Origin: Leptospira sp.
GTDB lineage: Bacteria > Spirochaetota > Leptospiria > Leptospirales > Leptospiraceae
Assembly: GCA_034439575.1 (NCBI GenBank)
Contig: JAWXAQ010000005.1
Coordinates: 83,108 to 147,107, forward strand
Length of the DNA stretch: 64,000 nucleotides
Direction of reading: 5' to 3'
Shown: piece after piece, positions 17,014 to 50,263 of the stretch
Numbering within the stretch: position 1 is the stretch's first letter
Layout of the letters: the number at the start of each line of letters is the position of its first letter
The notes under the pieces: model-generated
Told to the model about the DNA's origin: nothing
The model's input: the letters and a program-made list of their open reading frames with translations, nothing else
The model's database searches: none
Program-made: the position numbers and the translations under genes

Positions 17014-18471
17014 ATGAATTTTTATTCTGACTTCTTTATCATATTTATATACTTTGTTATTGTCTTCTTTTTTGGTTTTTATTTTTCAAAATCAAAATCA
17101 TCGGAATCTGATTTTTATTTAGGCAAAAAAGAAATTCATTGGATTTGGCTACTTTTTTCACTAGTAGCCACAGAAACTTCGAGTCTTACTTTTTTATCTA
17201 TCCCTTCCTTGTCATATAAGGGAGACTATTCGTTTTTACAAATTAGCATAGGTTATATTTTCGGCCGTACGATTGTAGCTTACTATTTATTACCAAGTTA
17301 TTTTGCAGGAGAGCGAATCTCCATATACGAATATCTAGGCGAAAAATTTGGAAAATCAGCGCAAAGATCTATGTCCTTGATTTTTACAGTTTCACGCATA
17401 TTAGGTGATGGGATTAGGCTCTATGTAACTTCTCTACCCATTGCCTTTCTTATAAACAAAATGGGAGGACTTCAACTTTCTGAATTTGAAATAGGAATCT
17501 TAGCATTATTTTTACTAAGTTTTGCCACCATCATTTACTCCGTATTTGGTGGATTCCGAGCCATAGTATTTACGGACTCATTGCAACTCTGTATATATTT
17601 ATTGGGCGGTATTTTTTCCTTATTTTTATTGATACATTTGATTTCGCCAATTGGTAGTGGATTTGATGTTTCAAAATTATTTCCGACTGGAATCAGCGAA
17701 AAACTAAGTCTTTTCCATTTTCAATTTATATCTGGTGATAATTCTTATTTCTTTGTATTTGCCATACTCGGTGGTGCATTCATATCTATCGGCTCACACG
17801 GTACTGACTTAATGCTTGTTCAACGAATCATTGCATCTAAAAATTTAAAAACAGGTCAAAAGATTTTAGTAACAAGTGGTGTATTTGTCTTTTTCCAATT
17901 TTTGTTATTTCTAAGCATAGGCACTTTACTCTATATTTATTATCAAGGCCAAAACATAGCACCTGATAAAGTATTTAGTTATTTTATCATTGAAAAAATC
18001 CCATCTCCCTTTTTAGGATTATTACTCTCTGCAATTCTTGCAAGTGCTATGTCTACGCTTTCGTCCACGATTAATTCACTTTCTTTGACTTGGGCGAGAG
18101 ACTGGGGGATGGACAAGTATTTTAGTCCCAAGATACTTAGTTTATTTTTTGGAATTGTACTTTTTATATCTTCTTTAATTCCATTTGCCTTGAATGAAAA
18201 TTTAGAAAAGAGCATATTAGAAATTGGGCTTACCATTTTTTCTTATACTTTAGGACCAAGCATTGCCCTATTTTTCTTTGCTAAAATGAAAAAAAATCAT
18301 CATTTCCCGAACTGGATCGTCTCTATTCTGTTATTTGGTTCAATCACTATACTCATTATCCTAGCTCAAATGATTAAACTACCATTCACCTTGCTTGTTC
18401 CTATCGGCATTTTAATCTTTTGTATAGGTTGGTTCCTATCAAATTTTATAGCTTCTTTATCGCGATCATAG
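17014..18471 (+). CDS. Sodium:solute symporter (SSS) family transporter
   Basis: 'SLVATETSSLTFLSIP', 'YSVFGGFRAIVFTD', 'DLMLVQR', 'ASAMSTLSSTINSL'. Confidence 0.92.
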   Translation: MNFYSDFFIIFIYFVIVFFFGFYFSKSKSSESDFYLGKKEIHWIWLLFSLVATETSSLTFLSIPSLSYKGDYSFLQISIGYIFGRTIVAYYLLPSYFAGERISIYEYLGEKFGKSAQRSMSLIFTVSRILGDGIRLYVTSLPIAFLINKMGGLQLSEFEIGILALFLLSFATIIYSVFGGFRAIVFTDSLQLCIYLLGGIFSLFLLIHLISPIGSGFDVSKLFPTGISEKLSLFHFQFISGDNSYFFVFAILGGAFISIGSHGTDLMLVQRIIASKNLKTGQKILVTSGVFVFFQFLLFLSIGTLLYIYYQGQNIAPDKVFSYFIIEKIPSPFLGLLLSAILASAMSTLSSTINSLSLTWARDWGMDKYFSPKILSLFFGIVLFISSLIPFALNENLEKSILEIGLTIFSYTLGPSIALFFFAKMKKNHHFPNWIVSILLFGSITILIILAQMIKLPFTLLVPIGILIFCIGWFLSNFIASLSRS

Positions 18472-21418
18472 CAATATCATCAGATAAAGCAGACATGCCA
18501 GACTGAGAAAGATTGAAGGTTGTATGTTTTTCTAAATCTTTTACAAATGAATTTACGATCTCGTTAACGCTAGTTTGACTGTTGTCCAATAAAATTTTAC
18601 TTACCTGCTCTCTTGTAAAAAAATCGCCAGAAGGACTACGGGCTTCATCTAAACCATCAGTGTATTGAAAAAAAACATCGCTACTATCCATAATAATCGC
18701 TCTTCTTTCAATCGTAGTTTCGAAAAAAGAATTTTCATCCATACCTAATGGCAATCCCCCTGCAGGTAATTCGTGAATCTTATTTTTTGAGGCATCAAAA
18801 TACAAAGGTTTGATATGACCTGCGGAAACATATTCAACTTGCGAATTTACAGGATCAAATAAAGCCAAGAAAAAAGTAATAAAAATATGATCGGGTGTTT
18901 CTTCATACAAACTAGCATTAGCCTCAAGTAAAACTTTTTTCAAATTTCTTTCCCCTCTGCGAAAAATAGAACGGATTTGTGAACGAAACAAAGCCATTAC
19001 GATAGCAGGACCGACACCATGATTTGATACATCGCCAATACAAAAAACTAATTTGCCATCATTTAATTCGATAAAATCATAATAGTCACCACCAACACCA
19101 GTCATTGCTTTATAAAAGGCAGCAATTTCGATTTTGTCAGAAAGACTTGTCGGTAACTTTTCGGGTAACAAACGTTTTTGTATTTCTTCAGCGGCAATTA
19201 ACTCACCTCGCATCTCATCTCTTTCTTTTAATCCAGAGACCATATCATTGAGTGAGTCCGTTAATATGCCAATTTCATCATAACCTGCCTTTGGAAAAGT
19301 TACATTCAAATTTCCTTTTTCGATTTGTTCTGCGTTTTTACTGATTACTTTAATGCGTCTAACAAATAAATGTGAAAAAATAAATGATAATAAAATAGCG
19401 AATAACCCGATAATGGCGACGTATCGCATTGTTTCTTCTCGGTTTTTTTTGATTTGGCGAATTCCATCTGTTCTATCTAATATGACAATATTAAAACCTA
19501 TAATATCTTTTTCTAATATTTCAAAAATTAAACCTCGTTTACCTTCAATTGATTCTAATAAAGGTTTACCATCCAATTCCCACATAGCCTCCTCTACTTC
19601 GGATCTACTATGCACCAATATTCCAGAATCATTATATATCTCTGTACCTCTTAATTTTGGTAATTCTGTCTCAGAATTTGCACTCAGGACCCAGTTACGA
19701 AAATGTGTATATTTGGTTTGAATTCTTTTTCGTTCATCTCCACTTTTATAGTATTTATTAATATTCGAATTTCCTGTTTTATAAGGAATAAAAGAAAAAT
19801 CATGTAAACTCGCGTCTCTCAAATACAAAACGGAATCATTTGACATTTCATGTATAAATTTTGTCCAATCGTCTTTTGAAGATTCGTGCAAGGCGATGTT
19901 ATCTCGCATTTCTTCTAACTGGCTTTCTAGTGTCTGGATTTTGTAATCGATCTCTTCTATCGAATATATTTTTTCATTTTCTTTTTGATTGCTTTTCGCT
20001 TTCAATTTCCACTCTGATAATTTTGCATTCAAATCATCAAAATTCTTTTTAAATTGTAATCCTTGTTCTTTCCATTTGATTTTATTTTCAGCGATCACGT
20101 TTTGATTTGGCAATAGTTCTTTAAATTTGGCCTCTCGTTTTGATATTAAACTGCGATATTTTTCTGTTAGTTCACGAAAAACTTTATCAGAACCTGGTTT
20201 CGTTTTTCCTGTTTTTCTAAGTTCACGCAATCGAATACGTATTTCAGTACTGAGTGTTTTAATTTCTTTTGCAATTTTTGTGTCTTCAATAAAATATTGA
20301 TTATAAAAGTCTTTTTCCTTTTGCAAGAAACCAAGAAGAGTGATTGCTCGCTCCGCCGAATCAGGATTTTTGAAAACTGGTTTAGTTAATACTTCAAATT
20401 GTCTGCCAACTACATCAATGGATTTGCTGTTAGAGTTAAATTGAGTTTCGATTTGTTTTTTCGAAAATAAGTCTGTGAGAATTTGTTTATATTCCTCACG
20501 TAAGAGCAATTTTTTACTCGTTTCCGGTGCCAGAGGAAATAGAGAAGCTGTATCTAAAGATTCTTTTCCATGTTTATCATATACAAATATTCTAATTTTA
20601 TCTGGTAATAATCCGATTGAATCGATTTTTTCTTTATAATTTCCTTTAAATATATTTAGCAAAGCTTTATTTAAATTTGACTCAAAGTTTAAAGCTTTCG
20701 CATCAGAAGTAATGATGTTTTTTGAAATTTGAATGAATTCTTTATTTAATTGATCCCTTTCTAAATTCAATTTTGATTTAGAAATTTCATCAATGGATGT
20801 ATCAGAAATATAAGCATTTATCGATTCTTTTAAGTCAGAAATTTCACGTACCCGAAATTTGTACTTTTCTGATTTTATTTTTTCTAAGGCCGCAGCTTTT
20901 GCAATCTTTTGAATTCTTTGATAGTTAATATCATCTATAGGCTTACCTGCTTCACCTTGAAGTTCATTTTTAATTTTTGATTCAAAAATAGAGATTTCCT
21001 TATCAGAAAGATAACGAGAGTAATAAGTATCAACTGAAGTATAAACATTTCCTCTTTTTACAGCAAGTCCAATGGATTGACCTAAATCTTTAAGAGTTCC
21101 TAAAAAACCAACTTCCTTACTAACTACCGTTCGTTTAAACTTTTTTAATTCACTTTTTTTTTCTTCGACTCGAATTTTGAATTCTTCAATCAAAACTAAA
21201 CTTCTATTTATATTTTCAAGTTCTAAAACTATACCATTCAAATAAACTAATGGATTTTTGATTTCAAGTTCCAACTTTTCTTGTAAGGCGTTTTTTTGTT
21301 GGCGATATGTGACGACAGAAGTCACGACCAGGATCACAGAGACCAATAAAATTGTGATAAAGGAAAGTTTTGTTCGTAAACCGGGTGTTATGATTCTCAA
21401 AATCTGTTTTTTATCCAT
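18446..21418 (-). CDS. SpoIIE/RsbU-type PP2C phosphatase with HAMP and very large extracytoplasmic domain
   Basis: TM1, ~630 aa charged region, TM2, HAMP ('DEIGILTDSLNDM'), PP2C 'VGGDYYD...GDVSNHG...YTDG...DDIAMI'. ATG at 21418 overlaps the upstream stop. Confidence 0.9.
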   Translation of the reverse strand: MDKKQILRIITPGLRTKLSFITILLVSVILVVTSVVTYRQQKNALQEKLELEIKNPLVYLNGIVLELENINRSLVLIEEFKIRVEEKKSELKKFKRTVVSKEVGFLGTLKDLGQSIGLAVKRGNVYTSVDTYYSRYLSDKEISIFESKIKNELQGEAGKPIDDINYQRIQKIAKAAALEKIKSEKYKFRVREISDLKESINAYISDTSIDEISKSKLNLERDQLNKEFIQISKNIITSDAKALNFESNLNKALLNIFKGNYKEKIDSIGLLPDKIRIFVYDKHGKESLDTASLFPLAPETSKKLLLREEYKQILTDLFSKKQIETQFNSNSKSIDVVGRQFEVLTKPVFKNPDSAERAITLLGFLQKEKDFYNQYFIEDTKIAKEIKTLSTEIRIRLRELRKTGKTKPGSDKVFRELTEKYRSLISKREAKFKELLPNQNVIAENKIKWKEQGLQFKKNFDDLNAKLSEWKLKAKSNQKENEKIYSIEEIDYKIQTLESQLEEMRDNIALHESSKDDWTKFIHEMSNDSVLYLRDASLHDFSFIPYKTGNSNINKYYKSGDERKRIQTKYTHFRNWVLSANSETELPKLRGTEIYNDSGILVHSRSEVEEAMWELDGKPLLESIEGKRGLIFEILEKDIIGFNIVILDRTDGIRQIKKNREETMRYVAIIGLFAILLSFIFSHLFVRRIKVISKNAEQIEKGNLNVTFPKAGYDEIGILTDSLNDMVSGLKERDEMRGELIAAEEIQKRLLPEKLPTSLSDKIEIAAFYKAMTGVGGDYYDFIELNDGKLVFCIGDVSNHGVGPAIVMALFRSQIRSIFRRGERNLKKVLLEANASLYEETPDHIFITFFLALFDPVNSQVEYVSAGHIKPLYFDASKNKIHELPAGGLPLGMDENSFFETTIERRAIIMDSSDVFFQYTDGLDEARSPSGDFFTREQVSKILLDNSQTSVNEIVNSFVKDLEKHTTFNLSQSGMSALSDDIAMIAIKKL

Positions 21419-21842
21419 GATTGTCTTTTCTGAAATGGAGATCCAATTTATTTTTATTTTCAGCAACAAGTCTCGTATAGTGAAGTGAAGCTACCTTTTT
21501 TATAGCATTCAAACCGAACCCACCATCGGCACCTGAAGCTAATTTTTGTTTTGAATCTGCACCAGTATATTTTGTTGGATCGAATGGCTTCCCAAAATCA
21601 ATCACAGTAAAGCAAAGATAATCAGTATATTCGAGGATTCTAATCTCTATTTTTTGGTCTAAACTTAATATTCCACCATGCTCTATAACATTTGTCACAA
21701 TTTCATCTAGGGAAAATATGATGCGATTTTGTAATTGTTTGGATACTAATTCAGAAACAAACTTTCTAATCTCACTTCTTAATAGAACTAAGGATCCTAA
21801 AGTCGGATCTAGGAAAATAATATTCTCTTTTACAACTTTCAT
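21411..21842 (-). CDS. RsbW-like anti-sigma factor Ser/Thr kinase
   Basis: 'DEIVTNVIEHG', 'DFGKPFDP', 'GGFGLNAI'. Confidence 0.88.
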   Translation of the reverse strand: MKVVKENIIFLDPTLGSLVLLRSEIRKFVSELVSKQLQNRIIFSLDEIVTNVIEHGGILSLDQKIEIRILEYTDYLCFTVIDFGKPFDPTKYTGADSKQKLASGADGGFGLNAIKKVASLHYTRLVAENKNKLDLHFRKDNHG

Positions 21843-21849
21843 TGCTTCA

Positions 21850-22191
21850 TTAAAAACTGGAAAGTGCCGCCTCGACAGTCGGGAAGATTTTTATTTTTTT
21901 TGTAAAATACATTAAATCCATTGTGTCTTTGACTTCTTTAGATAATCCGCTAAGGACTATTTCACCAGATTTTTCTTTTAAAAATTTCAAAGTAGCATTA
22001 AGCACACCGATCCCAGCAGAAGAAATGTAAGAAAGGTTTGCCATATCGAGCACAATATTTGTACTTCCATTTCCAATTATTAATTCCATCTGAAGCTTTA
22101 GATCAGGAGCAGTTTTTGCATCAATTTCGCCAGTCAATTTAAGCACCGCTGGATTTCCTACTTTTGTTTGTGATATTGTTAATTTATCCAT
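21850..22191 (-). CDS. STAS-domain anti-sigma factor antagonist (RsbV-like)
   Basis: 'LTGEIDAKTAP', phospho-Ser motif 'LSYISSAGIGVL'. Confidence 0.92.
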   Translation of the reverse strand: MDKLTISQTKVGNPAVLKLTGEIDAKTAPDLKLQMELIIGNGSTNIVLDMANLSYISSAGIGVLNATLKFLKEKSGEIVLSGLSKEVKDTMDLMYFTKKIKIFPTVEAALSSF

Positions 22192-24617: not shown

Positions 24618-25052
24618 ATGACACAGGTTTTTGAAATTTTTAGTCTTTTGAATTCTATAATATTTGCACTGATATCTTTTTTACATGTCTATTGGGCGTT
24701 TGGTGGTAAGTCATTCTTTTTATCAGCCATACCAAAAGACAGATCAGGAAAACTAATCTTCTCACCAGGGCCAATCGCATGTTTGATTGTCGCCTCGGGA
24801 TTGTTACTTTTTACTGCCTTAAATTTGTTAAATTTCTTCTCTTATTTTCCCAAGGAATATCAAAATTTCAACAAAGCGGCTTTCTTTTTGATCGCGCTAA
24901 TTTTTGGGCTCAGGGCGATTGGTGACTTATCCTATGTTGGATTTTTTAAAAAAGTTCGGTCTGGCGTTTTTGCCAAATGGGATACCTTGCTCTACTCACC
25001 ACTTTGTTTATTTCTTTCCCTTTCCCATTTAATATTGGGTCAAATTATTTAA
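24618..25052 (+). CDS. DUF3995-like membrane protein
   Basis: 'LHVYWAFGG...P', 'RAIGD..YVGFFK', 'DTLLYSPLCL'; four hydrophobic segments. Confidence 0.8.
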   Translation: MTQVFEIFSLLNSIIFALISFLHVYWAFGGKSFFLSAIPKDRSGKLIFSPGPIACLIVASGLLLFTALNLLNFFSYFPKEYQNFNKAAFFLIALIFGLRAIGDLSYVGFFKKVRSGVFAKWDTLLYSPLCLFLSLSHLILGQII

Positions 25053-25099
25053 TAAAAAAATTGACGATTTTATCCCTTTGAATCGTCTATAATATAACT

Positions 25100-25153
25100 A
25101 TGAAATCTTCCGCATTCATTCAAATTTCTCTACTCCTCCTCGAGCTCAAATAG
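25100..25153 (+). CDS. Leucine attenuator leader peptide MKSSAFIQISLLLLELK
   Basis: 17-codon ORF with a CTA CTC CTC CTC Leu run, directly upstream of a terminator and leuA; TATAAT at 25088-25093. Confidence 0.85.
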   Translation: MKSSAFIQISLLLLELK

Positions 25154-25215
25154 TTCGAGGGAGATAGAGCTTTTTGTTTAAGCCCGGTCCTCTCAAAAAG
25201 GATGCGGGCTTTTTT
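25127..25215 (+). promoter_or_regulatory. Ribosome-mediated transcription attenuator of leuA
   Basis: Segment 1 CTCTACTCCTCCTCGA pairs with segment 2 TCGAGGGAGATAGAG. Segment 2 can alternatively pair with AAGCCCGGTCCTCTC. The terminator follows. Confidence 0.8.
25180..25215 (+). terminator. Attenuator terminator hairpin
   Basis: AAGCCCG-GTCCT-loop-AGGA-TG-CGGGCTT followed by a T run. Confidence 0.85.
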
Positions 25216-25284
25216 GCTTTTAGCCCCGAAAAGCAAAAAAATTCCTCCTTCCAAAGACCGGCAAAAAGGAAGTAAGGAAAAAAA

Positions 25285-26472
25285 ATGAACGAACATAAAA
25301 CAAACAAAAGAAAAGTTTGGATACAAGACGTCACATTGCGGGACGGAAACCAGGCTTTAAAAAAACCTTGGACAAAATCTGAGAAAGAATCCGTGTTTGA
25401 CGCCTTAGTCGCGTTAAATGTAAATGGAATCGAAGTAGGATTTCCTTCCTCGAATCGAAACGAGTTTGAATCTGTACAGTCTTTGGCAAAAAAGGCACCC
25501 AAACACATAACAATTGCAGCTTTATCAAGGGCAAATGAAAAGGAAATACAAACCACTTGGGATGCCATTCAATTTGCAAAAACACCAAGGCTTCATATTG
25601 TTTATCCAGTCAGTGCATTTCAAATTCAAAACGTATTAAAAATTTCTAATGAACAAGTATTGGAAAAAATTTTTAATGCTATAAGTTTTGCACGAAAGAT
25701 TTCAGGTAAAGATACTAGCTTACAGTTTTCCGGAGAACATTTTGGAGATGCGATTGAAAATTTTGAATTCACCATAAAAGCATTTAACACTGCGATTGAA
25801 GCGGGGGCGACTGTGATCAATTTACCAAATACAGTGGAGCGTTATCGCCCCTTTTTGTTTGTCGATATGGTTCGTAGAGTCGTAGAAAAAATTCCAAGTC
25901 ATATAACAGTATCCGTTCATACTCATAACGATTTAGGTATGGCAACGGCAACGACGGTCGAAAGTTTTTATGCTGGTGCGACACAATTAGAAGTCGCATT
26001 GAATGGATTAGGTGAAAGAGCGGGCAATACAAATCTTTATGAAACTGCCATTGCACTTCATCAATGCGGCGAAGACGTCGATCTTAACTTTAAAAAAGTA
26101 TATCCTACTGCGAAATTTATTTCCGATTTAACAAAGATCCCTATTGGCGAAAAATCACCCATAGTTGGGGAAGATATATTTTCACACAGAAGTGGAATTC
26201 ACCAAGACGGTGTGACAAAAACAATTGGACAAAAAAAAGGAGCATATCGTACTTTTTCACCTGACTTTGTGGGCCGAGAAGACGAAGAAAAAATTTCTTT
26301 CACAAACCAATCAGGTGCCAAAGCGATCCAACATTTGTTATGGGAAGCTGGAAAAAAAATTGAGCCAGATAAAATCCAAATCCTATTTCACAAGGCTAAG
26401 GAAGTATCTAGCGCGGAAGAGAATCGAACCATTGAAATAGAAGAATTGTTATTTTGGGCAGAACAAGTTTGA
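25285..26472 (+). CDS. leuA: 2-isopropylmalate synthase, short form lacking the C-terminal regulatory domain
   Basis: 'DVTLRDGNQ', 'IEVGFP', 'INLPNTV', 'SVHTHNDLGMA', 'NGLGERAGN', 'HRSGIHQDG'; only 395 aa. Confidence 0.88.
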   Translation: MNEHKTNKRKVWIQDVTLRDGNQALKKPWTKSEKESVFDALVALNVNGIEVGFPSSNRNEFESVQSLAKKAPKHITIAALSRANEKEIQTTWDAIQFAKTPRLHIVYPVSAFQIQNVLKISNEQVLEKIFNAISFARKISGKDTSLQFSGEHFGDAIENFEFTIKAFNTAIEAGATVINLPNTVERYRPFLFVDMVRRVVEKIPSHITVSVHTHNDLGMATATTVESFYAGATQLEVALNGLGERAGNTNLYETAIALHQCGEDVDLNFKKVYPTAKFISDLTKIPIGEKSPIVGEDIFSHRSGIHQDGVTKTIGQKKGAYRTFSPDFVGREDEEKISFTNQSGAKAIQHLLWEAGKKIEPDKIQILFHKAKEVSSAEENRTIEIEELLFWAEQV

Positions 26473-26566
26473 AAACCATTCAGCTTAACTTCTATTTCAG
26501 TGTTGACAGTTTTATCATTGTTTGGTTAAATCTTGTCCGAGTCTTAAGGCTCTTATTGGAGAAACA

Positions 26567-28315
26567 ATGACAACAACAACTTTGATTCAAGGTGCTAGAA
26601 TATTTGATGGTTCAACAAAGCCATCTTTTGTTGGGGATATAAGAATCAAAGATGGCATCGTTCAGGAAATCGGAAATTCACTCAAAAAAAATGCGAAGGA
26701 AGAAGTCATAAATGCGAAAGGATTATGGCTCACTCCAGGATTTATTGATTTTCATACGCATTACGATGCAGAAATAGAAGTAGCACCCGACTTGTCTGAA
26801 TCAGTGCGGCACGGGATTACGACAATTGCGCTGGGAAGTTGTAGTTTAAGTTTAGCGTTAGGTGACCCTGTTGATCTAGCGGATATGTTCAGTCGCGTCG
26901 AAGCCATTCCCAGAAAGAACGTATTGCAAATACTAGAAAAAAGGAAAAACTGGAATAGTGCTAAAGAATACAAAGCACACTTAAACTCCCTACCCCTCGG
27001 TCCAAATGTAGTATCCTTTGCAGGGCATTCCGCAATTCGAGCTGAAGTCATGGGCCTGGAACGTTCTTTGACCAAAGGGGAAAATCCCACAAAGCAAGAG
27101 TTAAATGAGATGAAGGCCCACCTAGAAGAAGCACTTGATGCAGGATTTTTGGGTATGTCGATCAATACTCTTGTCTGGGATAAAATGGATGGTACTAGAT
27201 TTCGTTCTCGTCCCCTTCCATCAACTTTTGCTAGTTGGAGTGAATACCAATCCCTAAATCAAATTCTTCGCCGACGAGGGAAGGTTTTTCAAGGAGTCCC
27301 AAATGTTTCAACAAAGATCAATTTACTTATGTTTTTGTGGGAAGCCTTTGGAATCTTTCGAAAACCTTTAAAAACCACAATCATTTCTTTAATGGATGTC
27401 AAATATGATCCAAGGCTTTATAAATTATTAGGAATTATTGGTCGGATCACAAATAAACTTTTTGGTTCTGATTTTCGTTATCAATCCTTACCAGAACCTT
27501 TTGATTTGTATGCAGATGGAATGGATGTCGTCGTCTTCGAAGAGTTTGGTGCAGGTGCCTATGCGAATCATATTGAAGATGAACATGAACGTAAATTACT
27601 TATGAAAGATCCAAAGTACAGGTCTTGGTTTAAAAAACAATGGACCAATTGGTTTTTACCGCGCGTATTTCATCGAGACTTCTCAGAAACAAAAATTGTC
27701 TCCGCACCTAACAAATTACTTATTGGTAAATCTATCGACCAAATCGCCAAAGAAAGAGGAGTACATTCTGTCACAGCCTTCTTAGATCTAGTCGCAGAAT
27801 ATGGAAACGACATTCGTTGGTATACGGTTATGGCAAATCATAGATTGAAACCATTGCAAGAAATAGTCTCTCATCCAGACATATTGATAGGATTTTCAGA
27901 TGCTGGCGCTCATTTGCGGGGGATGGCTCATTATAACTTCCCACTTCGTATGCTTAAGTTAGTTTATGATGCCGAAAAAAATAAAACGCCATTTATGACA
28001 TTAGAATACGCAGTTCATCGTTTAACGGGAGAGATAGCGGATTGGTTTGGCATTGAAACAGGTTATATCAAAATCGGTAAACGTGCTGATCTTGTCCTCA
28101 TAGATCCAAATGAACTTAATGAGGAGCTAGCAAAAGATTTCGAAGCACCTATGCCTTTTATGAATGGTTTCAAAAGATGGGTGAGAAGAAATGATAAAAC
28201 CATCAAAAGAGTATTCATCAATGGTGCAGAGGCGATTAAAAATGGAAAACCTGTGGCGGCACTTGGTAAAAAGAAAATCTATGGCAAATTTTTAGAATCA
28301 AAAATGGGAACTTAA
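26567..28315 (+). CDS. N-acyl-D-amino-acid deacylase family amidohydrolase
   Basis: 'PGFIDFHTHYD', 'FSDAGAH', 'GKRADLV'; GGAG RBS before the ATG at 26567. Confidence 0.88.
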   Translation: MTTTTLIQGARIFDGSTKPSFVGDIRIKDGIVQEIGNSLKKNAKEEVINAKGLWLTPGFIDFHTHYDAEIEVAPDLSESVRHGITTIALGSCSLSLALGDPVDLADMFSRVEAIPRKNVLQILEKRKNWNSAKEYKAHLNSLPLGPNVVSFAGHSAIRAEVMGLERSLTKGENPTKQELNEMKAHLEEALDAGFLGMSINTLVWDKMDGTRFRSRPLPSTFASWSEYQSLNQILRRRGKVFQGVPNVSTKINLLMFLWEAFGIFRKPLKTTIISLMDVKYDPRLYKLLGIIGRITNKLFGSDFRYQSLPEPFDLYADGMDVVVFEEFGAGAYANHIEDEHERKLLMKDPKYRSWFKKQWTNWFLPRVFHRDFSETKIVSAPNKLLIGKSIDQIAKERGVHSVTAFLDLVAEYGNDIRWYTVMANHRLKPLQEIVSHPDILIGFSDAGAHLRGMAHYNFPLRMLKLVYDAEKNKTPFMTLEYAVHRLTGEIADWFGIETGYIKIGKRADLVLIDPNELNEELAKDFEAPMPFMNGFKRWVRRNDKTIKRVFINGAEAIKNGKPVAALGKKKIYGKFLESKMGT

Positions 28316-33353: not shown

Positions 33354-33656
33354 CTAATTGAATCTTTCTCGTCTAACAACTTTTACATCTGAAGAAAAAA
33401 CAATCATCGCATATTTATCTAAATATTTATCAGTCATTATCTCGATTATTTTTTCAGCCTTTGACTCAGAAACTAATGATTCTATTCTAATACTTTTCCC
33501 TTCCCATGATGAGTTATGTATAGAATTCAAACCTTCTCCGCGAGCTTCCGTGATCGTGTATCCTTTAACAGAAACACTCTTTAGATCTTCAATGATCTTA
33601 TTTTCTATAGCATCGTCGGCTATAATTGTGATTAATTTTGCTGTATCTAATTTCAT
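33354..33656 (-). CDS. sbtB: PII-like SbtB-type regulator
   Basis: 'KLITII...KGYTITEARGEG...IRIESLV...VVRRERF'; directly after sbtA. ATG at 33656. Confidence 0.8.
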   Translation of the reverse strand: MKLDTAKLITIIADDAIENKIIEDLKSVSVKGYTITEARGEGLNSIHNSSWEGKSIRIESLVSESKAEKIIEIMTDKYLDKYAMIVFSSDVKVVRRERFN

Positions 33657-33657
33657 G

Positions 33658-34629
33658 TTATGCTCCATAAATGATTTTTGCCATAGACAAATAAAGTGGA
33701 ATGCCGATTGAAATATTAAAAGGAAACGTAATCGCAAGGGCAGCGGTTAAATAATAGGCTGGACTTGCTTCCGGAAGGGCAATCCGTATCGCAGAAGGTG
33801 CGGCAATGTAGGAAGCACTAGCGGCTAAGGTCGCAAGTATTGAAGCTCCGCCTAACGATAAACCTGCAATTTTTGCCAATAGTAATGCAAAAAATGAGCA
33901 CATTATTGGAAATATAATTCCAAACCCTATCAAAAACACTCCTGCTTTTTTAAGATCAGATAACCTTCTACCTGTTACAATTCCTACTTCAAGCAAAAAG
34001 AGTATCAGAACACCACGAAATGGGGTATCGAACAATGGCCCAAATTGTTCTAAACCCTTTTTACCTGAAAGTAAGCCAATCATTAGTCCACCTAACAAAA
34101 GCAATGTACCTTTCCCTGCAAATAATTCATGTAAAACTTTTTTCCAGGAATCGGAATCCTCTCCTGATTTTGATTTAACTATAAAAATTGCAATTATGAT
34201 CGCTGGGACTTCCATAATCGCAAGCATACTTGGCATAAACCCTTCGTAAGTGATATGTTGTGAGTCCATGAAAGCTAATGCTTCACTGAATGTGACTGCC
34301 GATACTGAACCATAATGTGCTGCGAGGGCTGCGGCATTGACCATATCATATTTCCCTAGTCTGGTTAATATCACGTAGGCAATGACCGGAATTGTAATGC
34401 ACAATAGTATAGCCGCGAGAGCCGGTTTATAAAATTCTTCTATGGTCGTATTACTTAATTTTACTCCACCTTTCAAGCCTATGGCGAGTAACAAATAAAT
34501 TGTCAAGCCTGTGTACATTCCGTCCGGAAATTTAAGATCACTTTTTATAAGTGTGGCAAAAATACCCAAAAAAAATGCTAAGAACATGGGAGTTCTTAGA
34601 TTTGATAACAATGCTTCTGCGATTTCCAT
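33658..34629 (-). CDS. sbtA: Sodium-dependent bicarbonate transporter, SbtA family
   Basis: 'KSDLKFP', 'YLLLAIGLKGG', 'AAHYGSVSAVTF', 'ASASYIAAP', 'ITFPFNI'. Confidence 0.9.
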   Translation of the reverse strand: MEIAEALLSNLRTPMFLAFFLGIFATLIKSDLKFPDGMYTGLTIYLLLAIGLKGGVKLSNTTIEEFYKPALAAILLCITIPVIAYVILTRLGKYDMVNAAALAAHYGSVSAVTFSEALAFMDSQHITYEGFMPSMLAIMEVPAIIIAIFIVKSKSGEDSDSWKKVLHELFAGKGTLLLLGGLMIGLLSGKKGLEQFGPLFDTPFRGVLILFLLEVGIVTGRRLSDLKKAGVFLIGFGIIFPIMCSFFALLLAKIAGLSLGGASILATLAASASYIAAPSAIRIALPEASPAYYLTAALAITFPFNISIGIPLYLSMAKIIYGA

Positions 34630-34638
34630 TTTGTCTCC

Positions 34639-35325
34639 TTACTTATTCATATCCAAGATAAATTTTTCTGTCAGGAATTCTACTTTGCCTGTTTCGAGAT
34701 CATAGATTCCTCCTACAATTTGAATTTCTTTGTTCTTTGTTAATTTTGATAAAACTGGTTCAAGATTACGCAAGGATTGCACTTGTAAGGCGACATTTAC
34801 TTTAACGCTGTTTTCTATATGATCCCCAGGCAAATTGAGTGCTTTTTCTGCTGCTGGCTTTATTGAATTTACTAGTGTGACGATATGACCCGGTACTTCG
34901 GGAACTTTACAGGCTGCAGCGACTGCACCGCACTTGCTATGTCCAAGCACTACAACCAACTTGGCACCCAATGCTACAGTAGCAAATTCGATGCTTCCCC
35001 AAGACGCATAAGAAGAAACTTGGCCTGCTGTCCTAACAATGAACAGGTCCCCTAATCCTTGATCAAAAATAATTTCACTTGGGACACGTGAATCCGAACA
35101 ACCAACTATGACCGCGAACGGTTTTTGTTGTATGGCTACTTCCTTCAAGCGATCAATTGACTGATTTGGTTTAAGTGTTTTGCCAGTGATAAACCTTTGA
35201 TTCCCATCTGTTAATCTCTGTAGTGCATCAATAGTTGCCTTATTTTGAGCATCTAGAGCTAGAGAATTAAAGAATAATGCGGTCACTAGAAATAGACCTT
35301 CCTTAGAATTAATTCTTTGTTTCAT
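34639..35325 (-). CDS. Beta-class carbonic anhydrase with putative signal peptide
   Basis: Zn motifs 'GCSDSRVP' and 'LGHSKCGAV'; 'GDLFIVRTAG'; hydrophobic N-terminus. Alternative start 35343. Confidence 0.93.
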   Translation of the reverse strand: MKQRINSKEGLFLVTALFFNSLALDAQNKATIDALQRLTDGNQRFITGKTLKPNQSIDRLKEVAIQQKPFAVIVGCSDSRVPSEIIFDQGLGDLFIVRTAGQVSSYASWGSIEFATVALGAKLVVVLGHSKCGAVAAACKVPEVPGHIVTLVNSIKPAAEKALNLPGDHIENSVKVNVALQVQSLRNLEPVLSKLTKNKEIQIVGGIYDLETGKVEFLTEKFILDMNK

Positions 35326-35369
35326 TTTTTCACCCTGCTTCATTTATATCAGAAAAGAGAAAAAAGGTC

Positions 35370-45144: not shown

Positions 45145-48100
45145 GTGCGATATAAACATTACATTATAGTTTCAACATCAATTATTTTTACCATTGGATT
45201 TATTACCTTTGCCATGACTTCGCAGTTGCTCCGAAAAGCCAAACGAAGTCTTTTTCCAAGTGATTGTCGGATTACTATAACTTTTGATACAAGTAGCTTA
45301 AAATACTATGAAGACCGATGGGATTATAATTTCCAAACTTCAGAGAAAGTTGAAATTAAAGAATTTGTGCGTGCCATTGAATTTTCACCAAATACTTCTT
45401 TTAATAATTACTATTCCCTCGAAAATAATTCATCCTATTCAAGTTTTAGTTTGAACCAATGGGAAATCCAACCTGAGACAAATTATAACATCAAAGTTGG
45501 CAAATTTTATTCTGAAAACGATTGCATTTATGATGCGAGTCAGACTTTCTCAATTCCTGCACTTCAAAGGAAACCGAATTTTTGGGCGGAAAGAGAAAGT
45601 GTATTTGAATCCAATCTCACAAAAGTATTGCCAATAAGTATATCAAATGTTAAAGAATTCAAAGTTCGATATTCATTAATTAATGCATCAAATGTCGTTC
45701 AAGCAGTTGGTCAATTAGGGAATAAATATTATACTTATAACAATGGTATTAATTGGAAGAACGCCAAATGGAAAACAGGCGAAAAGGCAAATAACAGGGG
45801 TGAACAAGGTATTGATTTAGACTCTTACTTCGGTGGTTCGCAGAAAAAAGGATTCCTTGCACTTGAACTAAGTGCAGATGTAATTGATGATAATAACAAA
45901 CAAGTATTAAAGGTTGAGAGTTTCATTCTTCAATCAACTAACTTAGGAATTACGGCAAAAAAAGATAATAAATCTATTCATGTTTGGGTAAATACTCTAA
46001 ATAAAGCTCAACCAGTTAATTCATCTTCGATTAGCCTCTTTCATAGAGGGGAACAAATGGGTAACTGCAAAACAGAGAAAGATGGCCATTGTGTTATACA
46101 ATTTTCAGGAAGCATAGAACCTAATAGATCAATTCTTGTAGCTGATGCAGAAGGAACTGATTCAGCATTTCTTTATTTAGGTGAATCTGAATTATATTCT
46201 TATGATTATGATTCCAATACCGCTTTAGTCCAAGGGAAAATTTACTTCGATAGAAAACTTTATCGTCCAGGAGATAAAGTGGAAGTAAAGGCATTTATAG
46301 GTGAAAAGAAAAATGGTCATTTTTCTTCCTTTGAAAGTAAAAGTGTGCAAGTTGCGGTTCGTGATTCAAAAGGTAAGGAAGTATATTCTAAATCTATAAT
46401 ATCCTCATATCAAGGAGGGGTAGCTTTTACTTATCCAATTTCCAAGGATTCTCCTCTTGGGCATTATACCGTATCATTGACATCCCCAGGTGCAACGTAT
46501 CAATTTTCCTCTGACACATTTCAAGTTGAAGAATTTAGACCAGTAAATTTTGCCGTTGATGTTGAAGTTCCGAAACAATTATCAAAAAAGGATAAATTAA
46601 AAGCAAAAATTATCGGAAAATACCTGTTTGGTGCGCCTATGACTGGTGCAAAAGTAAAATATTCTATTTTAAAAAAACAGAAGTCAATATATTTTCAAGA
46701 TCATTCTGATTATTCATTTGGTAATAGCTTTTATTATGATGACTATTATCAGGACAACACGGAAGATTCATCCGGATATTTGAGTGGCGAAGAATCGGAG
46801 TTAAACGCCAAAGGAGAATATTTAGTAGATACAAAAATAGAAAATATTGAATCTAAATTCACTACTTCAGATTCAGACATCTCTATTGTGGATCCATATA
46901 CTTTGCTATTAGAAGCATCAGTACTTGATATAGATGGAAAATCTGTGACAAAAACTGAATCTGTTTCTTATTTACCTTCCGATTCATTTGTCGGTCTTAA
47001 ATGTCAAGATCGTTATCAAGGAATGGAACAGCCATTTAAATTTGGAATTCTAACTGTTGATAAAGACGGCAAAGCAGTCACTGGAAAAGACTTAAAAGTT
47101 CATGTCATTTACAATGACTGGAGCTCTGTCTTATCAAAAGGAATTGGAAAATTACTCTTCAGATCCAACTCTCTGGAAAAAAAGATAGTAGAAACAAAAA
47201 AAATAGTATCAGGTACAAATTCCAATTTCGAATTCAAAGCCAAAGATTCTGGAAGTTATACATTAGTTGTGACAAATTCAGATGGAATGTATTCTCGCAT
47301 TGATTTTTATGCATATAAAAAAGAAACTTATTATGCATGGGATTTTCGTAGTGATGATTCTATCGAATTAAAATCCGATAAAAAAGATTATAAAATCGGT
47401 GATACTGCAAAAATCTTAATTAAATCCCCGTTAGCGGATGCAAGACTTCTTGTCGCTGTCGAAAGAGATGAAATCTATGAAACATATACTTACCAATTAA
47501 AAGGAAATAGTTTACCTTTAGAAATTCCTATCAAAGGAGAATACTTACCCAATGTAACAGTCAGTGTCGTATTATTAAGCGGACGCCAAAGTTTACCCAA
47601 AGACTCCTCTGAATCAGATGCAACCGAATTTAAAGATAATGATCTTGGAGCACCTAAGTCAAAATCAGGGAAAATTGTATTGAAAGTTGATACTTCAAGT
47701 AAAATTGCACCTTTGACTATCAAGACAGATAAAGAAGAATATGGACCACGAGATTTAGTTAAATTAACCATCAAAACTCATCCAGGATCAGAAGTTGCTG
47801 TGTCAGTTGCTGATAGAGGGGTTTTAGATTTAGTCGGATACAGATTTACGAATCCAGTTTCAACATTCTATAATCTTTGGGCCAATATTGTAAAAACATA
47901 TGAAATGAGAAATCTTATCATTAAACATTACGCCTATCAAAACAAAGGTGATAGTCCAGGTGGTGATTATGGCGATGAGGGCGGTGGAGGATTTGGTTTT
48001 GATTCGGAAGATGGAACTCGCAAAGATTTCCGTTATACGGCCTTTTGGAATCCAGCTTTAATAGCTGATAGCGTTGGAGAAGTAGAAATACAATTCAACT

Positions 48101-50262
48101 TGCCTGATAATTTAACTACATTTCGGATTATGGTCGCTTCCTCATATAACGGAACATATGGGGTAGAAAACAAAGAGTTTCGTGTAAAAAAAAGTTTGGT
48201 TTTACAAAAAATAGCATCACGATTCGTTAGGATCGGCGACGAACTAGAACTAGGTGTTTCGGCTACAAATAACACAAAGAAAAATTCAAAGTTTAAAATT
48301 AATGTCAAATCTGATTTTTTGGTTTCTAGTACTACTAATACGGATACGATAGATCTAAACGCGGGACAAACCAAAGAATATACGAAAAAAGTTAAATTAT
48401 CTAAGGAACAATATATTAAACTTCGTGAAAAACAGTCGGATGGAGAAATTTCTGTAGACTATATTGTTAACGCAGAACCTCTGTCTTACGCTGATTTTTC
48501 AGATCTCAAAAAAAATGATATTTCCGATTCTCTTAAAGTTAGTATTCCAATTAAAGAATTAGATATGGTCTCTGTTGCGAAGGCTTCAGGATTTACTGAT
48601 TCTAATTACAAATATCTAGTCAAATTTCCTTCGGCAGATCAAATTTTAGGAAATAGAGGACAAATTCGCACGAGTCTTTCAGCTACAGCTTTACAAGGTT
48701 TACGAAATGCTTTTGATTTTTATGAATCAAATCCATATTTTTGTATGGAACAGCGAACATCCGCTTACTTACTTTCCATTAGTTCCGGCTCATTACTCAA
48801 AGATTTTAAATACGCACCGCCAAACAAAGATTCATATGATTTTGCGAATATTGAAAAACTTTTTCTAGATGAGATGAACGATTTTCAATATGCGGATGGA
48901 AGTTTTGGACTATGGAAAGAAAAATATGGAAGATCGGGTTATCCATATCTTACAGCTTATGTATTAGAAACTATGCAATTAGCAAAAGAAAGAAACCTTC
49001 GTATAAATAATTCGGTTATAGCACCTGCGATTCGTTATCTGGAAGATTATATAAAAAATCCATCTGATTCGAAAGATGAATCCTGGCAAAATTTGGCTAA
49101 GATATATAGTGTTTTAGTTAAAGAAAAGCGAAATACCTCTTCACTAGAAAAATCTTTATCTGATAATTTCCAAGATCTTAACGCAAAGTCGCAAGGGACT
49201 TTTTTACTTGCACTGGCCGAGGCTAAAGGTATCTCATCTAAAAATTCAGATCCATCTTTTAAAAAGATGTACGATCAATATGCTAAGAAATTTATTTGGG
49301 AAAATGATCAAACGATTAAAGTAATCCAAGAAAATGAAAACCGTTTTTGGTATTCTTATTATTCTCATGCATCAGCACTGGCCATCTATCTTAGATTACA
49401 GATAAAAGTCGACTCTGATAACAAAAAAATTCCTTCTTTAGTGCAGCTCCTGTTACTTGAAAAAGCTATATCTTATTGGAATGACAGCCATAGTGCAGGT
49501 ACTTTAGCATTTGCTTTGCGAGAGTATCATGATAAATTTGAAATTGGATCTACCGAAACTTCAGCCTCAGTTTTTTTTGGGGAATCGAATCTTTTTAACG
49601 GATCATTTGCCCAAGACTCAAATGCACTTACGACAGAAAATTTTTCATTGGATAGACTATTTGGGAAAAGACCACCTAGCAATACCGAAATGAAGTTTCA
49701 GAGAACAAGTGATGGCGGTAGACTTTACTTTAGTTCCAGTTTCAATTACGTGCCAATTGATGAATCATTAAAATCATATTCAAACGGTATTAAAATTGAA
49801 AAAACAGTCTCCAAAGTAGTTGGACGTTCTGATTCCGAGGAACCGATTTTAGAAGAAGTTAGCGGAAAACTAGACAGAGGTCAAACATACTATGTTAAAC
49901 TAACAATAGAATCTGATGATGATAGAGCATTTCTGATGGTAGTAGATCCAATTCCATCCAATACTGAAATTGTAAATACATCTTTTTTAACTGAAAAATC
50001 TTATAATGAAGAATCTGATGAAGGTTCATCTGACGGAGATTATTCTGATTACGATTATTATGACGGAAATTCATTTACTGAATTTCGTGATGATCGTGCT
50101 TTATTTTCAAAAGATCGGTTGCGAAAAGGAGAAACAGAATTCCACTATTATTTGCGTCCTTTAGTAAAAGGAGTTTCTTTACTACCTGCCGCCAAAGCCT
50201 TTCTTATGTATCAATCTTCATTTCGCACGAATAATGCTACTTCTCGCATGAAAGTGGAGTAA
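45145..50262 (+). CDS. Bacterial alpha-2-macroglobulin (YfhM-like)
   Basis: 'FDRKLYRPGD', 'FQVEEFRP', 'RKDFRYTAFWNP', 'LPDNLTTFRI'; thioester motif CMEQ at 48742-48753; 'EFRDDRA'. Confidence 0.93.
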   Translation: MRYKHYIIVSTSIIFTIGFITFAMTSQLLRKAKRSLFPSDCRITITFDTSSLKYYEDRWDYNFQTSEKVEIKEFVRAIEFSPNTSFNNYYSLENNSSYSSFSLNQWEIQPETNYNIKVGKFYSENDCIYDASQTFSIPALQRKPNFWAERESVFESNLTKVLPISISNVKEFKVRYSLINASNVVQAVGQLGNKYYTYNNGINWKNAKWKTGEKANNRGEQGIDLDSYFGGSQKKGFLALELSADVIDDNNKQVLKVESFILQSTNLGITAKKDNKSIHVWVNTLNKAQPVNSSSISLFHRGEQMGNCKTEKDGHCVIQFSGSIEPNRSILVADAEGTDSAFLYLGESELYSYDYDSNTALVQGKIYFDRKLYRPGDKVEVKAFIGEKKNGHFSSFESKSVQVAVRDSKGKEVYSKSIISSYQGGVAFTYPISKDSPLGHYTVSLTSPGATYQFSSDTFQVEEFRPVNFAVDVEVPKQLSKKDKLKAKIIGKYLFGAPMTGAKVKYSILKKQKSIYFQDHSDYSFGNSFYYDDYYQDNTEDSSGYLSGEESELNAKGEYLVDTKIENIESKFTTSDSDISIVDPYTLLLEASVLDIDGKSVTKTESVSYLPSDSFVGLKCQDRYQGMEQPFKFGILTVDKDGKAVTGKDLKVHVIYNDWSSVLSKGIGKLLFRSNSLEKKIVETKKIVSGTNSNFEFKAKDSGSYTLVVTNSDGMYSRIDFYAYKKETYYAWDFRSDDSIELKSDKKDYKIGDTAKILIKSPLADARLLVAVERDEIYETYTYQLKGNSLPLEIPIKGEYLPNVTVSVVLLSGRQSLPKDSSESDATEFKDNDLGAPKSKSGKIVLKVDTSSKIAPLTIKTDKEEYGPRDLVKLTIKTHPGSEVAVSVADRGVLDLVGYRFTNPVSTFYNLWANIVKTYEMRNLIIKHYAYQNKGDSPGGDYGDEGGGGFGFDSEDGTRKDFRYTAFWNPALIADSVGEVEIQFNLPDNLTTFRIMVASSYNGTYGVENKEFRVKKSLVLQKIASRFVRIGDELELGVSATNNTKKNSKFKINVKSDFLVSSTTNTDTIDLNAGQTKEYTKKVKLSKEQYIKLREKQSDGEISVDYIVNAEPLSYADFSDLKKNDISDSLKVSIPIKELDMVSVAKASGFTDSNYKYLVKFPSADQILGNRGQIRTSLSATALQGLRNAFDFYESNPYFCMEQRTSAYLLSISSGSLLKDFKYAPPNKDSYDFANIEKLFLDEMNDFQYADGSFGLWKEKYGRSGYPYLTAYVLETMQLAKERNLRINNSVIAPAIRYLEDYIKNPSDSKDESWQNLAKIYSVLVKEKRNTSSLEKSLSDNFQDLNAKSQGTFLLALAEAKGISSKNSDPSFKKMYDQYAKKFIWENDQTIKVIQENENRFWYSYYSHASALAIYLRLQIKVDSDNKKIPSLVQLLLLEKAISYWNDSHSAGTLAFALREYHDKFEIGSTETSASVFFGESNLFNGSFAQDSNALTTENFSLDRLFGKRPPSNTEMKFQRTSDGGRLYFSSSFNYVPIDESLKSYSNGIKIEKTVSKVVGRSDSEEPILEEVSGKLDRGQTYYVKLTIESDDDRAFLMVVDPIPSNTEIVNTSFLTEKSYNEESDEGSSDGDYSDYDYYDGNSFTEFRDDRALFSKDRLRKGETEFHYYLRPLVKGVSLLPAAKAFLMYQSSFRTNNATSRMKVE

Positions 50263-50263
50263 A

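Follow-up and report, generated by a model that had tools for sequence, protein, structure and literature searches.

A putative leucine-responsive attenuator upstream of leuA2 in Leptospira and its relatives

We analysed a 64,000-nucleotide stretch of Leptospira sp. DNA (assembly GCA_034439575.1, contig JAWXAQ010000005.1, positions 83,108 to 147,107; hereafter the window, whose own numbering is used throughout). The leuA2 gene in this window is preceded by a leader in which we recognise, with an estimated probability of about 0.8, a classical ribosome-mediated attenuator that would sense charged tRNA-Leu and control leuA2 as a stand-alone gene. The proposal is built on a small open reading frame (ORF) and on three alternative RNA pairings found in silico, which are conserved together with the gene. 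A first-pass annotation of this DNA had described a leucine-rich leader ORF, mutually exclusive stems and a U-tailed terminator ahead of leuA, all of which is borne out by RNA folding and by conservation across 57 loci.

The leuA2 gene (25285..26472; this and all features of the leader lie on the forward strand) encodes a short-form 2-isopropylmalate synthase (IPMS) of 395 residues. The product of IPMS is the first committed intermediate of leucine synthesis. The protein scores 680.7 bits against the NCBIfam model NF042434 (“2-isopropylmalate synthase LeuA2”, “IPMS_Lepto LeuA2”; cut-off 500), and a domain scan returned HMGL-like, IPMS_D2 and HCS_D2 domains only. The LeuA allosteric domain (PF08502) is absent, so that the earlier description of a short-form LeuA lacking the regulatory domain holds, and the window protein is a member of the Leptospira LeuA2 family with no difference at the protein level. 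No other leucine gene is found in the 64-kb window, and the leader would control the gene for this one isozyme. The short-form IPMS LeuA2 of Leptospira was reportedly described by Zhang et al. in 2014 (J Biol Chem). The IPMS activity of this enzyme is stated to be leucine-insensitive (PMC12345160, citing Zhang et al. 2014). Because LeuA2 is without the allosteric domain, the putative attenuator is the only leucine-dependent control of this enzyme that is visible in the sequence.

The leader ORF (25100..25153) comprises 17 codons between an ATG at 25100 and a TAG at 25151-25153, and its translation is MKSSAFIQISLLLLELK. The putative regulatory codons occupy 25130..25147: the run CTA CTC CTC CTC (25130-25141) is followed by GAG and then by a fifth Leu codon, CTC, at 25145-25147. 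There is no in-frame start further upstream because of a TGA at 25079, and no Shine-Dalgarno (SD) sequence of the GGAG/AGGA type is present in the 20 nt ahead of the ATG (25080-25099).

The leader RNA (25100-25290, 191 nt) folds with −59.5 kcal/mol (z = −4.3), a stability reached by none of 200 shuffles, and three alternative pairings can be distinguished within it. The first is hairpin 1:2 (25128..25169, −20.6 kcal/mol), an anti-antiterminator or pause hairpin in which the Leu codons form the 5′ arm and the stop codon lies in the loop. The second is an antiterminator (25157..25194, −12.7 kcal/mol) formed between region 2 and the terminator 5′ arm; it is mutually exclusive with both hairpin 1:2 and the terminator and was seen only in co-transcriptional snapshots without region 4. 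The third is an intrinsic terminator (25180..25216) consisting of a hairpin at 25180-25211 (−16.1 kcal/mol) with UUUUUU directly 3′ of it at 25211-25216. This layout is the four-region arrangement of a classical attenuator, and three of the features by which that class is recognised are found in the window: an ORF with tandem Leu codons, a terminator, and an exclusive antiterminator together with an upstream pairing that bears the codons. A simple promoter and terminator scan of the window picked up neither element of the leader, the promoter being missed on account of its 21-nt spacing to TATAAT and the terminator on account of a mismatched stem.

On this arrangement, transcription would begin at the leader AUG or a few nucleotides before it, and a ribosome would translate the 17-codon leader. 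With Leu-tRNA in ample supply, the ribosome would reach the UAG in the loop of hairpin 1:2 and cover region 2 (25154-25169), whereupon the terminator hairpin and its U-run would form and transcription would end near 25215. If Leu-tRNA were scarce, the ribosome would stall at the rare CUA and CUC codons, region 2 would be freed to pair with the terminator 5′ arm, and RNA polymerase would continue into leuA2. In the event of no translation, hairpin 1:2 would form and lead to termination. Leader translation, the location of the transcription start site (TSS) and the response to leucine are predicted here.

Conservation of the leader was assessed using 80 fetched loci with relatives of the gene. 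The first 60 of these (L001-L060) are from Leptospira (clades S, P1 and P2), other Leptospiraceae and Fibrobacteria, with 48-79% identity, whereas L061-L080 (Collinsella and others), at about 35% identity, were treated as a non-orthologous family. Counts given below refer to the 57 loci among L001-L060 with at least 300 nt of upstream sequence; L040, L048 and L058 were excluded for too short an upstream region. A Leu mini-ORF was required to start with ATG, to encode 8-40 residues with at least three consecutive Leu, and to lie no more than 400 nt upstream of the gene. Such an ORF precedes the orthologue at 56 of the 57 loci, and at the last (L037) the same ORF is present with a GTG start. The controls gave 2/57 for the reverse complement, 4.5% for mononucleotide shuffles and 26/775 for other 400-nt chunks taken from these loci. 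Conservation of the Leu run upstream of orthologues had been put forward in the first-pass annotation as a check on the idea, and the result is positive when set against the reverse complement. Of the distant loci L061-L080, 18 had an upstream region of sufficient length; 2 of these contain an LLL mini-ORF, which is chance level.

The Leu run is held by different codons in different lineages. Across the loci the leader Leu residues are encoded by CTC, CTT, CTA, CTG, TTA and TTG, that is by all six codons, and both the length of the peptide (14-22 aa) and its sequence outside the Leu run vary between clades, which argues for selection on the coding of Leu and not on one RNA sequence. The codons used in leaders are rare elsewhere. 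CTC, which makes up 50 of the 76 Leu codons in S-clade leaders, accounts for 8.9% of Leu codons in the window (26 long ORFs) and for 3% in leuA2 bodies; the Fibrobacteria leaders use CTT and CTA, which in the gene body contribute only 3% and 1% of Leu codons, respectively.

The alternative pairings are conserved as well. A hairpin with a U-run is present 46-71 nt past the leader stop codon at 56/57 loci, and RNAalifold recovered the terminator from a 58-sequence alignment with compensatory changes in 6 of its 9 consensus pairs. For the duplex of region 2 with the terminator 5′ arm and loop, the median energy across the 57 loci is −14.9 kcal/mol (median z = −2.3 relative to dinucleotide shuffles of region 2); z is below −2 in 36 of them, and at all 57 the part of region 2 used in the 1:2 pairing overlaps the part used in 2:3. 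Among 20 Fibrobacteria, an antiterminator of 7 pairs is seen with 92.9% of cells paired; sliding the partner columns lowers this to 36-60%. Compensatory changes occur at two of its pairs, in both cases in two close relatives, and these probably represent one event. Judged by these comparisons, the element is conserved well beyond chance.

The in-frame conservation of the Leu run is important for evaluating a different explanation, in which CUCCUC is simply the pyrimidine strand of a helix in an RNA-only switch (a riboswitch, a protein-binding RNA or a T-box-like element) and the ORF is untranslated. Pairing alone does constrain these sequences, given that a CUCC-like motif recurs in region 1, in the 5′ arm of the terminator and in the anti-SD, and a GGAG-like one in region 2, in the terminator 3′ arm and in the SD. 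Yet at 56 of 57 loci an ATG sets the frame of the run and a stop comes within a few codons after it, far above the reverse-complement and shuffle controls, and Leu is kept via synonymous codons that include UUA and UUG. Moreover, the span from promoter to terminator is about 115 nt, most of it ORF, and is too small for a ligand-binding fold, and no Rfam family reached its gathering score anywhere in the 64-kb window; the 15 matches at E ≤ 10 within 24900-25400 include neither a leader nor a T-box family. We consider an RNA-only switch to be very improbable.

A second explanation takes the small ORF to encode a functional hydrophobic micropeptide, with the hairpin as its own terminator and no relation to leuA2. 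The product is indeed short and hydrophobic, and a terminator lies directly behind it. Against this, it is only the Leu run that is conserved between clades, not the remaining sequence or the length, and the peptide codons double as helix 1. The element also accompanies leuA or leuA2 in two phyla despite different flanking genes (DUF3995 in the window; a 251-aa ORF of unknown type and RapA in Fibrobacteria). Of the explanations considered here, this one strikes us as the hardest to credit.

Between the terminator and the gene, the leader contains further predicted structure. The terminator U-run can pair with a downstream A-run in an AU-rich hairpin (25211..25239, −9.8 kcal/mol), and beyond it a predicted hairpin (25242..25279) joins a CU-rich stretch to the leuA2 SD (AAGGAAGUAAGGAA). 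The probability of this SD being unpaired is 0.22 in the window versus 0.60 in shuffles, 6 of 100 of which are as low. In Leptospiraceae (L002-L033) the median is 0.20, compared with 0.36 when the upstream part is shuffled, and 13/33 Leptospiraceae loci show sequestration at a level seen in at most 5 of 100 shuffles. The hairpin that pairs the SD may provide a second, translational layer of control.

The main value of the leader is as a candidate mechanism for the induction of leuA2 by superoxide. No gene or protein of L. interrogans is induced more strongly by paraquat than leuA2 (LIMLP_15720; PMC12345160), for which the log2 fold changes are 5.86 at 10 µM and 6.58 at 50 µM paraquat (roughly 60-100-fold) and 2.05 with H2O2 (PMC12345160 supplement). 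Regulation of leuA2 in L. interrogans is independent of the neighbouring genes, which are unchanged under paraquat (log2 fold changes −0.42/−0.56 and 0.22/0.31; same supplement). A peptide that starts with residue 2 of the annotated L. interrogans LeuA2 (PMC12345160 supplement) confirms the start codon and, with it, the gap of about 63 nt after the terminator. The authors of that study propose that LeuA2 backs up oxidised LeuA1 or releases coenzyme A and offer no mechanism for the induction; none of “attenuat-”, “leader” or “terminator” occurs in the text of PMC12345160. Other transcriptomes report an IPMS as changed (LIC10409, −3.34 in host chambers; LBJ_RS12795, +3.4), and here the paralogue concerned could not be told.

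We tentatively suggest, while regarding it as somewhat doubtful, that the leader is the mechanism of this superoxide induction. Oxidative damage to LeuA1, to the Fe-S isopropylmalate isomerase or to the tRNA for the rare CUC/CUU codons might cause a shortage of Leu-tRNA that would stall ribosomes on the leader, open the terminator and bring in a backup enzyme insensitive to feedback. In that event the attenuator would also be a sensor of oxidative stress, the SD-sequestering hairpin would silence leaky read-through, and the module (a promoter at the ATG, the Leu leader, a GCCCACUCC-type terminator and the gene) would be common to Leptospiraceae and Fibrobacteria. A Leu attenuator gives a concrete hypothesis for the induction of leuA2, and one that fits the published model in which LeuA2 backs up damaged LeuA1. 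Regulation in Leptospira is poorly understood, few cis-regulatory RNAs are known, and a study of TSSs in L. interrogans identified no general promoter motif (PMC5243855).

The stress signal could instead be carried by the promoter. A −35-like TTGACG (25061..25066) preceded by an A-run is present in the window, and TTGAC(A/G/T) is kept at this site in other Leptospiraceae and, within Leptospira, in clades S and P2. Comparison between clades places the probable −10 region at 25085..25093, where a GTCTA box (25085-25089) overlaps the hexamer TATAAT (25088-25093) that ends 6 nt before the leader ATG. The first-pass annotation had pointed to TATAAT; it is the GTCTA box that is conserved, whereas a T at position 6 of the hexamer is found in only 3/12 S-clade sequences. 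In Leptospira the order is A-run, TTGAC, N19 and GTCT(A/G)A, after which the ATG comes 6 (P1), 9 (S) or 10 (P2) nt later, and TTGAC-N19-GTCT(A/G)A is present at 25061-25089 of the window and at the equivalent site in L001-L017, L030 and L059. This is not a common promoter type in the Leptospira DNA analysed here: the window contains two matches to the pattern TTGACN{17,22}GTCTR, for 0.81 expected, and of the 17 fetched loci that match, 16 do so at the leader promoter.

These features raise the alternative that regulation occurs mainly at the promoter, with TTGAC-N19-GTCT(A/G)A serving as a site for an alternative sigma factor of the extracytoplasmic function (ECF) type or for a transcription factor. 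In that case the promoter would be the stress switch and the leader would set a basal level. GTCT(A/G)A is more conserved than any TAnnnT hexamer and, at 19 nt from TTGAC, is too far away for standard sigma-70. The box (GTCTAA/TCTGA) resembles the −10 element of E. coli sigma-E promoters. Several ECF sigma factors are encoded by Leptospira (PMC5243855). The large paraquat induction of leuA2 could likewise be promoter-driven. However, Fibrobacteria and other Leptospiraceae have ordinary −35 and −10 elements and no GTCTA box, and still possess the Leu leader and terminator, and a promoter switch leaves the conserved in-frame Leu run and the three alternative pairings unexplained. Control residing mainly at the promoter is in our estimation unlikely, if clearly less so than the two explanations dealt with above, and promoter control and attenuation are layers that are not mutually exclusive.

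The arrangement of the promoter also bears on how the leader might be translated. The Fibrobacteria promoter is canonical (TTGCGC-N17-TATCAT-N6-ATG), and other Leptospiraceae have 28-29 nt between the −35 box and the leader ATG; in both groups this geometry puts the TSS on the A of the ATG, while in Leptospira it falls on the leader ATG or 2-4 nt upstream. The short, fixed distance from promoter to ATG and the lack of an SD in any clade suggest that the mRNA is leaderless or has a 5′ untranslated region (UTR) of a few nucleotides, and the leader is probably translated from such a leaderless or near-leaderless message. Transcripts of this kind are frequent in L. interrogans, with about 440 leaderless mRNAs (UTR below 10 nt), 184 of them with the TSS on the start codon (PMC5243855).

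Several observations weigh against an attenuator. The 2:3 pairing in the window is no better than that obtained with shuffles of region 2 (z = −0.4; 68/200 as good), and the argument that the element is more than chance therefore depends on conservation. Across the 57 loci the 1:2 pairing does not exceed shuffles either (median z = −0.7), because purine-rich and pyrimidine-rich strands pair in any order; it is kept here as anatomy only and was not counted as evidence. When the stalled ribosome is masked, the minimum free energy structure retains the terminator, and antitermination must therefore be kinetic, as the switch is in textbook attenuators. One of the 57 loci (L026) keeps the hairpin without the U-run. 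The link between leader and leucine is drawn from sequence, and leucine starvation under paraquat is a supposition. Finally, the primary TSSs determined by differential RNA-seq for the L. interrogans orthologue (LMANv2_230017, L019 2881-4167; leader ATG at L019 2697) precede the start codon by 28 nt (30 °C) and 81 nt (37 °C) (PMC5243855). These positions, L019 2853 (30 °C) and 2800 (37 °C), are after or inside the terminator and not at the leader ATG. Among the primary TSSs of PMC5243855 and the portion of its all-TSS table that was covered, none is at the leader ATG, for a gene whose coverage is low (mean about 10-13), and no small RNA at the L. interrogans leuA2 leader is listed in the supplements. 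The leaderless transcript proposed in the first-pass annotation is likely: an SD is lacking, in the window and in all clades, and the promoter geometry fits, but the published L. interrogans start sites do not coincide with the leader ATG.

Leader-peptide attenuation is textbook knowledge, and it is as an instance that the leuA2 leader is new; our literature search found no description of a leuA2 leader, or of such an attenuator class, in Leptospiraceae or Fibrobacteria. The leuL and trp attenuators of E. coli and Salmonella follow a four-region logic (1:2, 2:3 and 3:4) with a stop codon near region 2 and an intrinsic terminator, and the E. coli leu leader also uses tandem rare-type Leu codons. 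The leuA2 leader shares the four regions, the rare tandem Leu codons, the position of the stop codon and the intrinsic terminator with leuL. Unlike the E. coli and Salmonella leu leaders, it has no Rfam match, precedes the gene for one isozyme instead of leuABCD, and is probably leaderless and not SD-led.

A parallel for the 5′ end is provided by Actinobacteria, in which leaderless Leu leader peptides before a monocistronic leuA have been mapped or predicted (PMC8079986 and PMC5784534). As in S. lividans LeuL1 (MRFGLLLLSCRGEGL) and the Corynebacterium leu leader, a Leu-run ORF lies at the 5′ end of the transcript (a predicted one here), leuA stands alone and stalling is proposed. The S. lividans leader belongs to a different phylum, with no sequence similarity seen, and the TSS has been mapped in Streptomyces (PMC8079986) whereas it is predicted here. 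According to the same source, the S. lividans leuA leader is without a typical Rho-independent terminator; the Leptospira-type element, in contrast, has its hairpin and U-run at nearly every locus.

Within Leptospira itself, the ilvB motif was reported with seven representatives (Brewer et al. 2021, PMC8632094) and was reinterpreted in 2023 as a branched-chain amino acid/threonine upstream ORF (uORF) that has three or more Val codons and would fit attenuation (PMC10272879). It resembles the leuA2 leader in host and related pathway, and in being a predicted uORF rich in regulatory codons for which attenuation is proposed. It differs in preceding another gene, in using Val instead of Leu codons and in having only seven representatives, and “leuA” is absent from the searched text of PMC8632094 and PMC10272879. 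The view that no attenuator had been described in spirochaetes is accordingly outdated, given the proposal for ilvB in PMC10272879.

It had further been suggested that attenuation replaces allosteric control in this system, which our comparison does not support. The LeuA enzymes of Fibrobacteria (L031-L058) have 498-537 residues and are found behind a similar Leu leader and a terminator that is almost the same throughout (GCCCACUCC...GGAGUGGGC). Both of the Fibrobacteria enzymes that were scanned, in the size range of 519-537 aa, contain PF08502 (LeuA_dimer). The coexistence of attenuation and the allosteric domain in these long-form relatives indicates that attenuation is not simply a substitute for a lost domain. 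Leptospira, in addition, retains a long, feedback-inhibited LeuA1 (PMC12345160). In L. interrogans the primary TSS of LeuA1 precedes the start codon by just 66 nt (PMC5243855 supplements), a distance into which an attenuator would hardly fit.

A quick tree of the catalytic region places Leptospiraceae and Fibrobacteria in one strongly supported clade, with Fibrobacteria as a single clade inside it and a very long outgroup branch. No order of domain loss or gain was drawn from it, owing to that long branch and to the tree coming from a quick search only. Three loci labelled Bifidobacterium or Bifidobacteriales (L035, L040 and L048) carry a Fibrobacteria-type gene and group with Fibrobacteria in this tree, and L030, a metagenome-assembled genome (MAG) labelled L. 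interrogans, groups with another Leptospiraceae MAG, far from the L. interrogans locus L019. The bin labels of these four look doubtful.

The neighbours of leuA2 in the window encode an RhlE-type helicase, a DUF3995 protein, an amidohydrolase and OpgG/OpgH-like proteins. Upstream of the amidohydrolase gene (ATG at 26568), within 26503-26567, is the sequence TTGACA-N17-TTAAAT, and no terminator was seen 3′ of leuA2. The amidohydrolase gene probably has its own promoter, and co-transcription with leuA2 may occur.

Three other groups of genes in the window are worth recording. At 18446-22191, on the reverse strand, a SpoIIE/HAMP phosphatase (1007 aa), an anti-sigma-type kinase with a HATPase_c_2 domain and a STAS anti-anti-sigma factor stand in a row as a partner-switching set. 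Carbonic anhydrase, an SbtA-type bicarbonate transporter and a P-II-like protein are encoded together at 33354-35343, also on the reverse strand, in what looks like a cluster for the uptake of inorganic carbon. On the forward strand, at 45145-52426, a gene for a bacterial alpha-2-macroglobulin (1705 aa) is followed by one for a transglycosylase/transpeptidase, a PBP1C-like pairing.

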